This document shows positions 2,687 through 56,249 of a DNA stretch of 64,000 nucleotides, piece by piece. Position 1 is the stretch's first letter. Each line of letters opens with the position of its first letter. The stretch lies in the NCBI RefSeq assembly GCF_003334305.1, contig NZ_QOWS01000008.1, one strand, 5' to 3'. The notes under the pieces were generated by a model. It saw only the letters and a list, made by a program, of their open reading frames with translations, searched no databases and had not been told where the DNA came from. This DNA comes from Escherichia coli (lineage in GTDB: Bacteria; Pseudomonadota; Gammaproteobacteria; Enterobacterales; Enterobacteriaceae). The position numbers and the translations under genes were made by a program.

Positions 2687-4120
2687 CTATTTCAAGCGAT
2701 AGTAAAGCTCACGGTACGACTTCGCCGCGACCTGCCAGCTAAAATCCATTGCCATAGCCTGACGTTGCACAAACCGCCACAGTGAAGGACGGGACCACAG
2801 TACAAAAGCACGTCGAATAGCCCGTAACAGCGACCAGGCATTACTATCTTCAAAGACAAACCCACTGGCGACGCCATCTGCAAGGTTCTCAAGAGAACAG
2901 TCAGAAACCGTATCAGCAAGCCCACCGGTGCGCCGCACTAACGGCAGCGTACCGTACTTCAATCCATAAAGTTGCGTTAAGCCGCACGGTTCAAAACGGC
3001 TGGGCACCAGAATGACATCCGCGCCGCCCATAATGCGATGCGAAAATGCTTCGTGATAGCCAATCTGAACGCCCACCTGGCCGGGGTATTCCGCTGCCGC
3101 CGCAAGGAAACCTTCCTGCAGCACCGGATCGCCCGCGCCGAGTAGCGCCAGCTGCCCGCCCTGCTCCAGAAGGCCCGGTAAGGCTTCCAGCACCAGGTCG
3201 AGACCTTTCTGGCTGGTCAGACGGCTCACCACTGCAAAAAGCGGCACTTTATCATCAACCTTAAGCCCCATTGCGATTTGTAACTGGCGCTTATTTTCCG
3301 CTTTATCTTCCAACGTATCGCGGGTGTAGCGCGAGGCCAACAGTAAGTCCGTCTCTGGACTCCAGATTTTCTCGTCCACGCCGTTCAGTACGCCGGAAAG
3401 ACGCCCTTCACGGTGACGCTGTTGCAACAGACCTTCCATACCGTAGGCAAACTGCGGTTCGGTGATCTCGCGAGCGTAGGTTGGACTGACCGCCGTAATG
3501 TGATCGGCATAGTACAGACCGGCCTTCAGGAAAGAGATTTGTCCGTTGAATTCCAGCCCATGAATATTAAAGAATGACCATGGCAATTGGATGTCATTCA
3601 TATGATGTGCATAAAACATGCCTTGATAGGCCAGGTTGTGCACAGTAAACACCGACTTCGCCGGACGCCCGCGCGCCGCCAGATACGCAGGCGCAAGGCC
3701 TGCATGCCAGTCGTGCGCATGCACCACATCAGGACGCCAGAATGGGTCAAGCCCGCTGGCCATTTCTGCCCCAACCCACCCCAGCAGCGCAAAACGCAAT
3801 ACGTTGTCGGTATAGGCAAATAAGTTGGTATCGTGATACGGGCTTCCCGGACGATCATAGAGATGCGGCGCGTCAATCAGGTATATGCCAACCCCGTTGT
3901 AATGACCGAACAACAGCGTGATATGTCCGGCGAAGGTATCACGACGGGATACTACCTGCGCATCGGTAACGCCACGGCGAATATCGGGAAATGCAGGCAA
4001 CAGTACGCGAGCGTCAACGCCGTCTGCGATTTGTGCTGCGGGTAATGCCCCAATAACATCAGCCAGACCGCCGGTTTTAAGCAGCGGGAACATCTCTGAA
4101 CATACATGTAAAACCTGCAT
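2687..4120 (-). CDS. glgA: glycogen synthase
   Basis: 477-aa ORF starting [22 protein letters not shown], the conserved ADP-glucose binding KTGGL motif; matches E. coli GlgA. Confidence 0.96.
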
Positions 4121-41692: not shown

Positions 41693-41724
41693 TTGACTCT
41701 GGAGTCGACTCCAGAGTGTATCCT
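41693..41724 (+). promoter_or_regulatory. zntA promoter with ZntR (MerR-type) operator
   Basis: TTGACT -35 overlapping a perfect 22-bp palindrome ACTCTGGAGTCGACTCCAGAGT, with a TATCCT -10-like hexamer 20 bp downstream of the -35; long-spacer MerR-family architecture 35 nt upstream of zntA. Confidence 0.75.
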
Positions 41725-41759: not shown

Positions 41760-43958
41760 ATGTCGACTCCTGACAATCACGGCAAGAAAGCCCCTCAATT
41801 TGCTGCGTTCAAACCGCTAACTGCGGTACAGAACGCCAACGACTGTTGCTGCGACGGCGCATGTTCCAGCTCGCCAACGCTCTCTGAAAACGTCTCCGGC
41901 ACCCGCTATAGCTGGAAAGTCAGCGGCATGGACTGCGCCGCCTGTGCGCGCAAGGTAGAAAATGCTGTGCGCCAGCTTGCAGGCGTGAATCAGGTGCAGG
42001 TGTTGTTCGCCACCGAAAAACTGGTGGTCGATGCCGACAATGACATTCGTGCACAAGTTGAATCTGCGGTGCAAAAAGCAGGCTATTCCCTGCGCGATGA
42101 ACAGGCCGCCGAAGAACCGCAAGCATCACGCCTGAAAGAGAATCTGTCGCTGATTACGCTAATCGTGATGATGGCAATCAGCTGGGGTCTGGAGCAGTTC
42201 AATCATCCGTTCGGGCAACTGGCGTTTATCGCGACCACGCTGGTTGGGCTGTACCCGATTGCTCGTCAGGCATTACGGCTGATCAAATCAGGCAGTTACT
42301 TCGCCATTGAAACGTTAATGAGCGTAGCCGCTATTGGTGCGCTGTTTATTGGCGCAACGGCTGAAGCTGCGATGGTGTTGCTGCTGTTTTTGATTGGTGA
42401 ACGACTGGAAGGTTGGGCCGCCAGCCGCGCGCGTCAGGGCGTCAGCGCGTTAATGGCGCTGAAACCAGAAAACGCCACGCGCCTGCGTAACGGTGAGCGT
42501 GAAGAGGTGGCAATTAACAGCCTGCGCCCTGGCGATGTGATTGAAGTTGCGGCGGGTGGGCGTTTGCCTGCCGACGGTAAACTGCTCTCACCCTTTGCCA
42601 GTTTTGATGAAAGCGCCCTGACCGGCGAATCCATTCCGGTGGAGCGTGCGACGGGCGATAAAGTTCCTGCAGGCGCCACCAGCGTAGACCGTCTGGTGAC
42701 GTTGGAAGTATTGTCCGAACCGGGAGCCAGCGCCATTGACCGGATTCTGAAACTGATCGAAGAAGCCGAAGAGCGTCGCGCTCCCATTGAGCGGTTTATC
42801 GACCGTTTCAGCCGCATTTATACGCCAGCAATTATGGCCGTCGCCCTGCTGGTAACGCTGGTGCCGCCGCTGCTGTTTGCCGCCAGCTGGCAAGAGTGGA
42901 TTTATAAAGGCCTGACGCTGCTGCTGATTGGCTGCCCGTGTGCGTTAGTTATCTCCACGCCCGCGGCGATTACCTCCGGGCTGGCAGCAGCGGCACGTCG
43001 TGGGGCGTTGATTAAAGGCGGAGCGGCGCTGGAACAGCTGGGTCGTGTTACTCAGGTGGCGTTTGATAAAACCGGTACGCTGACCGTCGGTAAACCGCGC
43101 GTTACCGCGATTCATCCGGCAACGGGTATTAGTGAATCTGAACTGCTGACACTGGCGGCGGCGGTCGAGCAAGGCGCGACGCATCCACTGGCGCAGGCCA
43201 TCGTACGCGAAGCACAGGTTGCTGAACTCGCCATTCCCACCGCCGAATCACAGCGGGCGCTGGTCGGGTCTGGCATTGAAGCGCAGGTTAACGGTGAGCG
43301 CGTATTGATTTGCGCTGCCGGGAAACATCCCGCTGATGCATTTGCTGGTTTGATTAATGAACTGGAAAGCGCCGGGCAAACGGTTGTGCTGGTAGTACGT
43401 AATGATGACGTGCTGGGTATCATTGCATTGCAGGATACCCTGCGCGCCGACGCAGCAACTGCCATCAGTGAACTGAACGCGCTGGGGGTTAAAGGAGTGA
43501 TCCTCACCGGCGATAATCCACGCGCAGCGGCGGCAATTGCCGGGGAGCTGGGGCTGGAGTTTAAAGCGGGCCTATTGCCGGAAGATAAAGTCAAAGCGGT
43601 GACCAAGCTGAATCAACATGCGCCCCTGGCGATGGTCGGTGATGGTATTAACGACGCGCCAGCGATGAAAGCTGCCGCCATTGGGATTGCAATGGGCAGT
43701 GGCACAGACGTGGCGCTGGAAACCGCCGACGCAGCATTAACCCATAACCACCTGCGCGGCCTGGTGCAAATGATTGAACTGGCACGCGCCACTCACGCCA
43801 ATATCCGCCAGAACATCACTATTGCGCTGGGGCTGAAAGGGATCTTCCTCGTCACCACGCTGCTAGGGATGACCGGACTATGGCTGGCGGTGCTGGCAGA
43901 TACCGGTGCGACCGTGCTGGTAACAGCGAATGCGTTAAGATTGTTGCGCAGGAGATAA
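41760..43958 (+). CDS. zntA: Zn/Cd/Pb-exporting P1B-type ATPase
   Basis: 732-aa ORF; N-terminal GMDCAACARKVE metal-binding motif, membrane CPC motif, DKTGT phosphorylation site, GDGINDAPA. Confidence 0.96.
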   Translation: MSTPDNHGKKAPQFAAFKPLTAVQNANDCCCDGACSSSPTLSENVSGTRYSWKVSGMDCAACARKVENAVRQLAGVNQVQVLFATEKLVVDADNDIRAQVESAVQKAGYSLRDEQAAEEPQASRLKENLSLITLIVMMAISWGLEQFNHPFGQLAFIATTLVGLYPIARQALRLIKSGSYFAIETLMSVAAIGALFIGATAEAAMVLLLFLIGERLEGWAASRARQGVSALMALKPENATRLRNGEREEVAINSLRPGDVIEVAAGGRLPADGKLLSPFASFDESALTGESIPVERATGDKVPAGATSVDRLVTLEVLSEPGASAIDRILKLIEEAEERRAPIERFIDRFSRIYTPAIMAVALLVTLVPPLLFAASWQEWIYKGLTLLLIGCPCALVISTPAAITSGLAAAARRGALIKGGAALEQLGRVTQVAFDKTGTLTVGKPRVTAIHPATGISESELLTLAAAVEQGATHPLAQAIVREAQVAELAIPTAESQRALVGSGIEAQVNGERVLICAAGKHPADAFAGLINELESAGQTVVLVVRNDDVLGIIALQDTLRADAATAISELNALGVKGVILTGDNPRAAAAIAGELGLEFKAGLLPEDKVKAVTKLNQHAPLAMVGDGINDAPAMKAAAIGIAMGSGTDVALETADAALTHNHLRGLVQMIELARATHANIRQNITIALGLKGIFLVTTLLGMTGLWLAVLADTGATVLVTANALRLLRRR

Positions 43959-48865: not shown

Positions 48866-48910
48866 TCCGCCCACCCGACTGCCCATCTATTGATCCAGAA
48901 CAGGTAATCA

Positions 48911-48938
48911 GTATGACGAATACTTAAAATCGTCATAC
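48911..48938 (+). promoter_or_regulatory. NikR operator in nikA promoter
   Basis: GTATGA-N16-TCATAC dyad (GTATGACGAATACTTAAAATCGTCATAC) 38 nt upstream of nikA start. Confidence 0.8.
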
Positions 48939-48975
48939 TTATTTCCGCCATCTATTTTAATCCATTGGGGTTACC

Positions 48976-51494: not shown

Positions 51495-54298
<2,804 letters not shown>

Positions 54299-54329
54299 GT
54301 TATTTCTGAAACGAGGAAAGAAAAGATAT

Positions 54330-54362
54330 TAACTGAACTTAATTTATAAAATTAAGTTCAGT
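54330..54362. terminator. perfect 33-bp palindrome (15-bp stem, 3-nt loop), bidirectional terminator candidate between nikR and the hicB-like gene
   Basis: AACTGAACTTAATTT-ATA-AAATTAAGTTCAGTT read directly from sequence. Confidence 0.55.
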
Positions 54363-54417
54363 TGCATAGATAGATCCTGTAAAGGCAGATATTCTGCGTA
54401 ATGTACGCCGCTAAAAT

Positions 54418-54777
54418 TTATAAATGATTCAAACGCTCATTCAGTGTTTCAATAATATAGGTATTAACAGAGACTTGTTGCTGCGCAGCCGCATTATTAA
54501 GGCGTTCACTCAGCGATTCTGGATAGCGTAACGTAAAGGTCTTAATCTTTTCTGTACGCGCATACGGCTCAATACCCGCAGCTTTACAATCCTCAAGATA
54601 CTCTCGCAGGGAAAGTTCCCCTTCTTTTTGCAGCCCCTGAATGCTGTCAGAGACAAAATCACAATAACCTGACAAGCCCAGGAATTTGCCACGAAATGCA
54701 TTCAGTTCTGGCACGTAAGTGATAACTGCAGGTTGCCCGGCAATCTCCATAGAGTTTGGCGTCTTCAGTTTGATCAT
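54418..54777 (-). CDS. HicB-family antitoxin candidate with C-terminal ribbon-helix-helix DNA-binding tail
   Basis: 119-aa ORF; RHH-like C-terminus TFTLRYPESLSERLNNAAAQQQVSVNTYIIETLNERL; 4-nt ATGA overlap with upstream HicA-like ORF. Confidence 0.6.
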   Translation of the reverse strand: MIKLKTPNSMEIAGQPAVITYVPELNAFRGKFLGLSGYCDFVSDSIQGLQKEGELSLREYLEDCKAAGIEPYARTEKIKTFTLRYPESLSERLNNAAAQQQVSVNTYIIETLNERLNHL

Positions 54778-55049
54778 GGTTTTACCCCTATACTTAGTAA
54801 CCAGTCACGCACGCTTTCTACAGCGCCTTTATCGGTATCTGGCGACGGATGAGGCCGATGGAAACACGCAACGCTCATATTTAGTATGAACTTACAACGC
54901 GAACCTCTTCCTTCCTTAATTTCTCCGCCTAATGCTTTAACCAGTGACTCTATATCAGACCACTTGATCCCTTGAGGAACAGGAGTTTTAAATATTTGAT
55001 CCAATGTATTTTTTTGTTTCTTCCGTAAAGCCTGTACCTTGGTTCTCAT
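54774..55049 (-). CDS. HicA-family (YcfA-like) mRNA-interferase toxin candidate
   Basis: 91-aa basic ORF MRTKVQALRKKQKNTLDQIFKTPVPQGIKWSDIESLVKALGGEIKEGRGSRCKFILNMSVACFHRPHPSPDTDKGAVESVRDWLLSIGVKP with the conserved His-Pro core; toxin-first order typical of hicAB. Confidence 0.6.
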   Translation of the reverse strand: MRTKVQALRKKQKNTLDQIFKTPVPQGIKWSDIESLVKALGGEIKEGRGSRCKFILNMSVACFHRPHPSPDTDKGAVESVRDWLLSIGVKP

Positions 55050-55050
55050 G

Positions 55051-55102
55051 GCATGTCCTTATGACTTCACTTTATGACATCAATAGTATGACATCACAGT
55101 AT
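55051..55102 (-). promoter_or_regulatory. operator-like repeat cluster upstream of the hicA-like gene
   Basis: Direct repeats TATGACATCA (55062..55072 and 55077..55086) nested within inverted repeat ATGACTTCA ... TGAAGTCAA, directly 5' of the toxin start. Confidence 0.45.
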
Positions 55103-55121
55103 GAAGTCAAGTTTCCCTTCC

Positions 55122-56249
55122 TTACGCCATTGTCCCAATCGTCTTCCTGAATCGCAGCAGCGCGATGGTGAAAAACGCGCCGCCAATTGCCATCAGCGTC
55201 AGGAACTGCGGCCAGACGATTTCGAATCCGGCACCCCGGTAGAGAATGGCCTGCGCGAGGCTAACAAAGTGTGTCGTCGGCATGGTCAGCATAATGTCCT
55301 GCACCATCTGCGGCATACTTTCGCGCGGCGTGGATCCACCGGAAAGCATTTGCAGCGGCAGCAGCACCAGAATCACCAGCAGCCCCAGTTGCGGCATTGA
55401 ACGCGCTATCGTCCCCATAAAAATGCCGATTGACGTGGTGGCAAACAGACTGAGCGCCACGCCCAGCATAAACAGCGGGATCGAGCCTTCAATCGGTACA
55501 CCCAGCACGCCTTTCACCATCAGCACCAGTGATAATCCCGACACCACCAGCACCACCAGCCCCATCGACCAGACCTTTGCCATCATGATCTCAAACGGCG
55601 TTATCGGCATCACCAACAAGTGTTCCACCGTGCCGTGTTCACGCTCGCGGATCAGCGCCGATCCGGTCAATACAATCGCCAGCATGGTAATGTTGTTGAT
55701 GATTGCCATCACCCCGCCAAACCACGCGGGATCAAGGTTCGGGTTAAAGCGCATCCGGGTTTCCAGCGATACCAACGGTTCGCTGTTATCACGGTAGCGC
55801 GCGACAAAGCTGTTCACTTCACCGTTGATAATATTCTGGATATACCCATTGCCGGTAAATGCCTGGCTCATGCGCGTGGCATCGACGTTCACCTGAATAT
55901 CCGGCTGGCGTCCGGCGAGGACATCACGCTGAAAATTAGGCGGAATATTTATCGCAAAGGTATAACGCCCGGCGTCCAGTCCGGCATCCATCTCATCGGC
56001 GGTGATCATCTCCGGTGGCAAAAACCACGGGCGATAGAAGCTGTTAACGATCCGGTTCGATAACTGCGATTGATCCATATCGGCAATGGCGATCGGCGCG
56101 AGGTTCAACGATCCTGGCGTAACGGTCGCTGACGAATACACCGACACCGTAAACGAGAAGACAATCAGCGTCAGCATCGCTTTATCACCGAGCAGACTGC
56201 GCAACTCTTTGATACCCAGATTAAAAATATTGCGTAAATGGCGCATCAT
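55122..56249 (-). CDS. yhhJ: ABC-2 family transporter permease
   Basis: Membrane [34 protein letters not shown]; start taken at ATG 56249 overlapping rbbA stop (ATGA); the adjacent ATG 56246 is an alternative; ORF track extends to 56330. Confidence 0.9.

Follow-up and report, generated by a model that had tools for sequence, protein, structure and literature searches.

A perfect AT-rich palindrome between the convergent nikR and hicB genes of one Escherichia coli allele, a candidate shared RNA 3'-end hairpin

We analyzed a 64,000-nucleotide stretch of Escherichia coli DNA (the window), in which nikR, the last gene of the nik cluster, converges on a toxin-antitoxin gene pair. The nikR gene (53897-54298, plus strand) was recognized as an ORF and from the RefSeq annotation of identical DNA. 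On the minus strand lie hicB, encoding an antitoxin of 119 amino acids (54418-54777; Pfam HicB PF05534, E = 3.5e-15, and RefSeq annotation), and hicA, encoding a toxin of 91 amino acids (54774-55049; Pfam HicA_toxin PF07927, E = 3.7e-9). An NCBIfam scan of the HicA and HicB proteins gave zero matches. The gene hicA is the first of the hicA-hicB operon, so that hicB is the gene convergent with nikR, and yhhJ and rbbA come next after hicA. The GC content of nikR and yhhJ is about 55%, and that of hicA and hicB is 42-44%. The stop codons of nikR (54296-54298, plus strand) and hicB (54418-54420, minus strand) enclose an intergenic spacer of 119 bp with 31% GC (54299-54417). Its length is constant in all contexts in which this HicB is adjacent to nikR.

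The spacer contains a perfect palindrome of 33 bases, AACTGAACTTAATTT-ATA-AAATTAAGTTCAGTT, at 54331-54363, which reads the same on both strands. Its perfect arms of 15 bp (54331-54345 and 54349-54363) are separated by a 3-nt loop, ATA (54346-54348). The preliminary description of this DNA had recognized the flawless 15-bp stem and the length of 33 bp, and its coordinates (54330-54362) need only be moved one base to the right. The palindrome begins 32 nt past the nikR stop and ends 54 nt from the hicB stop. It is the longest perfect hairpin-type inverted repeat of the 64-kb window (the runner-up has arms of 11 bp), and arms of 15 bp appeared in 0 of 200 block shuffles. The palindrome is beyond chance. 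No second copy of the 15-mer arm was found in the 64-kb window with up to two mismatches allowed.

Because the repeat is perfect, RNA from either strand forms the identical hairpin, with the same 15-bp stem and 3-nt loop (-14.5 kcal/mol). With 111-141 nt of surrounding sequence, the fold is more stable than that of 200/200 shuffles (z = -4.0 and -3.6). A stable stem-loop shortly past a stop codon, as is usual for intrinsic terminators, is thus present. The G+C-rich stem of such terminators, especially at the base, is not: G-C pairs account for 3 of the 15 (20% GC), and the basal pairs are A-U, A-U and C-G. On the minus (hicBA) strand, the hairpin is immediately followed on its 3' side by a T-rich tail (AATATCTTTTCTTTC, 54316-54330), and a pattern scan scored the palindrome as terminator-like on this strand only (tail AATATCTTTT). 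The tail is interrupted (AAUAUCUUUU), with one U in the first four positions and six T in the eight positions that start 2 nt past the stem. Its proximal part is invariant across all spacer alleles seen. On the plus (nikR) strand no T tract follows the stem, where the sequence is GCATAGATAG, and the palindrome is therefore not a canonical bidirectional intrinsic terminator. Scanning 53800-55300 against Rfam 15 with E values up to 10 yielded nothing meaningful; the best match overlapping the palindrome was RefA5, at 14.8 bits versus a threshold of 91 (E = 7.7).

Folding of the minus strand identified two small overlapping 5-bp hairpins (54385-54408) in the interval that separates the palindrome from the hicB stop. 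The first is GCAGA-TAT-TCTGC (54385-54397) and the second GCGTA-ATG-TACGC (54396-54408). Both contain polymorphic sites (54391, 54392, 54395, 54404 and 54408). Two of the three polymorphisms in the first hairpin fall in its loop, and those in the second break pairs. We also identified a minus-strand ORF of seven codons (ATG CAA CTG AAC TTA ATT TTA TAA, encoding MQLNLIL; window 54344-54378, start at 54367). It has an AGGA upstream at 7-nt spacing, enters the hairpin arm and has its stop in the loop. It is probably a chance ORF.

We surveyed 5426 complete E. coli genomes, all with nikR, for the DNA that follows this gene. Three alleles cover 5244 of the 5426 genomes. The first, of the K-12 type, has rhsB after nikR (2118/5426 genomes). 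The second carries an island of about 5.9 kb with GntR and PTS sugar genes (1635/5426, including Nissle, O157 and O145), and the third has the palindrome spacer followed by hicB-hicA-yhhJ (1491/5426). Among these three common alleles, the palindrome is present in the third only. The preliminary description had held that the palindrome would be just the nikR terminator if rhsB strains carried it identically. The rhsB strains (e.g., K-12) lack it, and it is thus not simply the core nikR terminator. A record labelled 'DH5alpha' (NZ_CM135829.1, 4.83 Mb) does carry the palindrome and may be mislabelled; the K-12 genome that we examined (AG100) has rhsB and lacks the palindrome.

Homology of the window to rhsB-type genomes stops at 54304, and homology to PTS-type genomes at 54296, where the nikR stop codon also differs (TAA versus TGA). 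In the O157 type the PTS island is followed by hicB-hicA-yhhJ. Similarity to the window starts again no earlier than 54407 in this type, and hicBA thus occurs there without the palindrome; in Nissle the PTS island is present and hicBA is absent. The palindrome is carried by a segment of 30% GC (54305-54406) without counterpart in rhsB-type and PTS-type genomes. Given breakpoints at 54296/54304 and 54406/54407, it lies in the middle of an allele-specific segment of about 103-110 bp, 27-35 bp inside the breakpoints on one side and 43 bp on the other. The earlier placement of the palindrome exactly at the junction thus holds only approximately, as it sits on neither breakpoint. Comparison of the junction with and without the toxin-antitoxin module, as had been proposed, ties the palindrome to one spacer allele rather than to the module. 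The K-12 nikR and the hicB of O157 and Klebsiella are all without it, and we therefore assign it to that spacer allele.

The interval from nikR to yhhJ (window 54296-55122) is a hotspot, with rarer states that include nikR only 8 bp from yhhJ. It corresponds to Rhs locus 9 in a survey of Rhs elements (PMC2935791), which was the only match of a literature search on the locus (nikR, yhhJ, hicB).

Of the 1497 E. coli genomes that match the 33-mer at all, 1487 (99.3%) have it exactly. A query of 112 nt (word size 11) matched a single locus in each of 1498 genomes, apart from four extra places overall, and the allele-specific segment is single-copy, chromosomal and at the nikR locus in every carrier genome. 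The genome search for additional copies that had been suggested at the outset thus returned none, as the 33-mer matches the nikR-hicB locus alone. E. coli W and EPEC E2348/69, two dissimilar strains, are both carriers. Among five spacer alleles that were sampled irrespective of the palindrome, differences occur at up to four flank sites, and the palindrome is unchanged in all five. In total, 7 of 86 flank positions are variable versus 0 of 33 palindrome positions, a difference that is not significant (P ~0.1). The palindrome is invariant in every allele seen and therefore provides no covariation evidence for the stem. In the RS571-type allele, the substitution G54364A extends the stem to 16 bp. 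In E. coli A30 (locus 4040-4100, corresponding to window position 54345), IS1 is inserted exactly in the palindrome loop, and the genes from hicB to yhiN are deleted.

Outside E. coli genomes, an exact-pattern scan of metagenome contigs that allowed loops of 1-7 nt gave 33 matches, 33/33 of them in the nikR-hicB context. Viral contigs and phage records gave no match to the palindrome. Plasmid records contained no true plasmid copy, and the matches there were mislabelled chromosomes and a Klebsiella hicB coding sequence. A NikR-anchored scan with one genome per species provided 80 loci, among which the palindrome is confined to E. coli-type sequences. The PTS-type junction follows nikR in E. 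albertii, E. whittamii and two further Escherichia species. As these four Escherichia species have the PTS type and the palindrome spacer occurs in E. coli only, the spacer with the palindrome is probably a derived state within E. coli, as judged from the distribution of these junctions.

The arrangement of hicBA convergent with nikR is found more widely. Citrobacter sedlakii has nikR, a spacer of 93 bp and hicB-hicA-yhhJ, and Klebsiella aerogenes has nikR, 27 bp without a hairpin and hicB-hicA. In a K. pneumoniae record nikR and hicB are also 27 bp apart, and hicA was not found there. A Klebsiella metagenome-assembled genome has a gap of 33 bp between nikR and hicB-hicA, and Enterobacter sp. 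JUb54 a gap of 56 bp with its own GC-rich hairpin. None of these has the palindrome. In many Citrobacter and in Salmonella arizonae/diarizonae, yhhJ directly follows nikR, with a spacer that by eye is GC-rich and REP-like. These comparisons indicate that nikR-convergent hicBA is an old arrangement, common to several genera, and hicBA is thus not simply accessory DNA. The original framing of the site as a boundary between core nikR and accessory hicB-like DNA is therefore only partly right, the more so since the O157 type has hicBA and no palindrome.

We propose, with moderate confidence, that the palindrome is an RNA 3'-end hairpin shared by the convergent nikR (plus strand) and hicA-hicB (minus strand) units. 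The hairpin lies between convergent stop codons, can fold on both strands, and has a T-rich tail on the minus strand. Each of the other two alleles has a different hairpin of its own 13-14 nt past nikR (GGGTCCTTTG...CAAAGGGCC in K-12; GCGCCGT...ACGGCGC, -15.5 kcal/mol, in the PTS type). The exactness of the 33-mer and the invariance of the tail, as opposed to seven polymorphic sites in the flanks, are also consistent with this function. On the hicB side, the O157-type gene has a canonical terminator 7 nt after its end (ATAGCGGC...GCCGCTAT, about -20 kcal/mol, then ATTTTTG). The right breakpoint (54406/54407) cuts this terminator, of which only the arm GCCGCTA (54407-54413) remains in the window. 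The palindrome is thus the sole strong hairpin left downstream of hicB.

The stem and its U-rich tail on the hicBA strand could serve as an intrinsic terminator, AT-rich and rather weak. The nikR strand has no U tract, and the hairpin may act there as a pause or as a point of polymerase collision, and it would also block 3' exonucleases. The net effect would be that hicBA transcription is kept from running antisense into nikR, and vice versa. We infer that transcripts of both units end at the palindrome. Several features weigh against this reading. The 20% GC stem, its A-U base and the interrupted U tract are poor features for an intrinsic terminator, and the nikR strand has no T tract. The invariant palindrome offers no covariation evidence, and its lack of polymorphism (0 of the 7 variable sites) is not significant. 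In addition, nikR and hicB of Klebsiella are 27 bp apart without a hairpin, and insulation is therefore not essential.

The preliminary description offered three options for the palindrome, and the bidirectional terminator is the best fit among these, albeit without the T tract on the nikR strand that the canonical form would have. Bidirectional terminators of convergent E. coli genes are described as unlike intrinsic terminators, and as needing an RNA stem-loop that positions head-on polymerase collisions (Ju et al. 2019, cited in Wang, Watters, Ju and Liu 2022, bioRxiv 10.1101/2022.10.23.513370). The palindrome lies between convergent 3' ends and encodes a stem-loop for transcripts from both directions. 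It resembles these terminators in being a non-canonical stem-loop in a short convergent gap, available on both strands, with the proposed role of pausing polymerases so that they collide head-on at a fixed place. Unlike what is described there, its stem is unusually AT-rich (20% GC) and perfectly symmetrical, and it occurs in 27% of E. coli genomes.

The palindrome also resembles the Rho-independent terminator of O157-type hicB, in that both are hairpins soon after the stop codon with a T-rich run on the hicB strand, and it takes the place of this terminator, which the breakpoint has cut. It differs from it in its AT-rich 15-bp stem, A-U base, interrupted U tract and in the other strand being without a T-rich run. 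A further parallel is with REP sequences, which by eye appear to occupy the equivalent nikR-yhhJ or nikR-hicB spacer in Citrobacter and Salmonella. REPs have been reported as stabilisers of 3'UTR terminators, and their presence in convergent spacers is correlated with raised expression of the two neighbouring genes (bioRxiv 10.64898/2026.03.23.713779). In contrast to the palindrome, which is AT-rich, perfect and single-copy, REPs are imperfect, rich in GC and number in the hundreds. Its membership in the REP or BIME families was rejected on these grounds and because it occurs at one locus per genome.

A possible but unlikely alternative is that the segment is functionless AT-rich filler of about 105 bp, left when the 5.9-kb GntR/PTS island was lost or replaced in an E. 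coli lineage. Strand or template switching, for example, may have perfected an inverted repeat during this event and so created the palindrome, which would persist only because the allele is young. Several observations favour such a history. The PTS-type junction of other Escherichia and the restriction of the palindrome spacer to E. coli suggest that the allele is probably derived, and its right breakpoint cuts a pre-existing terminator. The segment has no detectable relative elsewhere (E. coli genomes, plasmids, phages, viral contigs and metagenomes). A short-word BLAST search for its source against 92 loci returned only a 13-nt match to nikR. Diversity is low over the whole spacer, the absence of polymorphism from the palindrome is not significant, and Klebsiella copes without a hairpin. 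However, the flawless stem is intact in 99.3% of about 1500 genomes, across diverse strains and spacer alleles. The hairpin is also at the place expected of a terminator, and its T-rich tail is on the hicB strand, which has lost its own terminator. Moreover, a neutral origin and later use as a terminator are mutually compatible. The combined scenario, in which the palindrome arose de novo when the 5.9-kb island was removed and the hicB terminator lost, and has since been kept because it restored insulation between the toxin-antitoxin operon and the nickel repressor gene, appears improbable. It would be a natural example of a perfect palindrome in filler DNA taking over from a lost terminator.

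The 13-nt match is an exact direct repeat, GATATTCTGCGTA, found in nikR (53996-54008) and in the spacer (54388-54400). Its E value of 0.63 is at chance level, but the repeat could represent microhomology involved in the origin of the allele.

We consider it very unlikely that the hairpin terminates a discrete minus-strand small RNA of about 100 nt (approximately 54417 to 54318) with a regulatory role of its own, either derived from the 3'UTR or independently transcribed. The usual layout of 3'UTR-derived small RNAs in enterobacteria is small hairpins followed by a long hairpin with a U-rich tail. The minus strand here has that order (two small hairpins, the long hairpin and the U-rich tail), and a promoter-like site, TTGAAA-17-AATCAT (54452-54424, minus strand), would place a start near the hicB stop. 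Such promoter-like sites are about as frequent here as chance predicts (3 found versus 2.2 expected), and no Rfam family matches, the best score of 14.8 bits being far below the 91 required. The confinement of the segment to one allele of one species also argues against this role.

Least likely of all is a site that acts at the DNA level (the operator of a dimeric regulator, a site of integration or site-specific recombination, or a cruciform that promotes rearrangement at this hotspot). The perfect dyad symmetry, the three-allele hotspot and the A30 insertion of IS1 exactly in the loop would fit such a site, but both pairs of breakpoints (54296/54304 and 54406/54407) lie outside the palindrome, which occurs once per genome and in no phage, viral or true plasmid record, half-sites of 15 bp far exceed the usual operator length, and the IS1 insertion happened once, in AT-rich DNA, where IS1 is expected to insert. 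By eye, the palindrome is unlike both the NikR operator and the repeat at the hicA promoter.

No 15-mers resembling the arms (up to three mismatches) were found in the O157 locus including the whole PTS island, in the 1.5 kb to the right of nikR in K-12, or as half-sites in the loci of other species. The suggestion that the palindrome is a recombination or insertion footprint is thus unsupported, given no flanking half-sites, no other copies and breakpoints outside the palindrome. We rejected an attachment site, as the breakpoints fall outside the palindrome and no half-sites flank the alternative islands. Membership in a repeat family or mobile element was rejected because all copy searches return the nikR-hicB locus alone. 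A MITE or IS remnant was rejected because the palindrome is single-copy and by eye has no flanking direct repeat. It also does not contain the GTATGA-N16-TCATAC motif of a NikR operator.

Hairpins in convergent spacers are ordinary signals, and the palindrome is most likely a further case. The import beyond annotation is small: in about one in four E. coli strains, the palindrome marks the probable 3' boundary of hicA-hicB and nikR. Our comparison also corrects how the locus is viewed, in that the adjacency of nikR and hicBA is old, whereas the palindrome is part of just one of the three common alleles at this known Rhs hotspot. Should its function be confirmed, nature would have supplied a clean case in which to test hairpin-only termination of convergent genes, as the stem is the same on both strands and the U tract is on one side only.

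Other repeats were identified in the window. An imperfect inverted repeat, TGACTTCACTTTATGACATCA / TGACATCACAGTATGAAGTCA (window 55062-55109), overlaps a promoter-like site upstream of hicA (55110-55083, minus strand). This probable HicB operator includes a direct repeat of TATGACATCA. In a common allele (e.g., FDAARGOS_401), one copy of the TATGACATCA repeat has been lost via a 14-bp deletion. The hicA gene is often damaged while hicB is 100% identical (seen at six loci). Some genomes have a hicA shortened to 76 amino acids, that of RS571 is interrupted by an internal stop, and in several contigs the gene is not called.

A perfect 22-bp palindrome, ACTCTGGAGTCGACTCCAGAGT (41696-41717), lies within TTGACT...GTATCCT, about 40 nt upstream of an ORF of 732 amino acids (41760-43958). 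We take it to be the ZntR operator in the zntA promoter. Finally, AGTATGACGAATACTTAAAATCGTCATACT at 48910-48939 is a perfect GTATGA-N16-TCATAC dyad, the NikR operator, about 40 nt upstream of the nikA start (48977).
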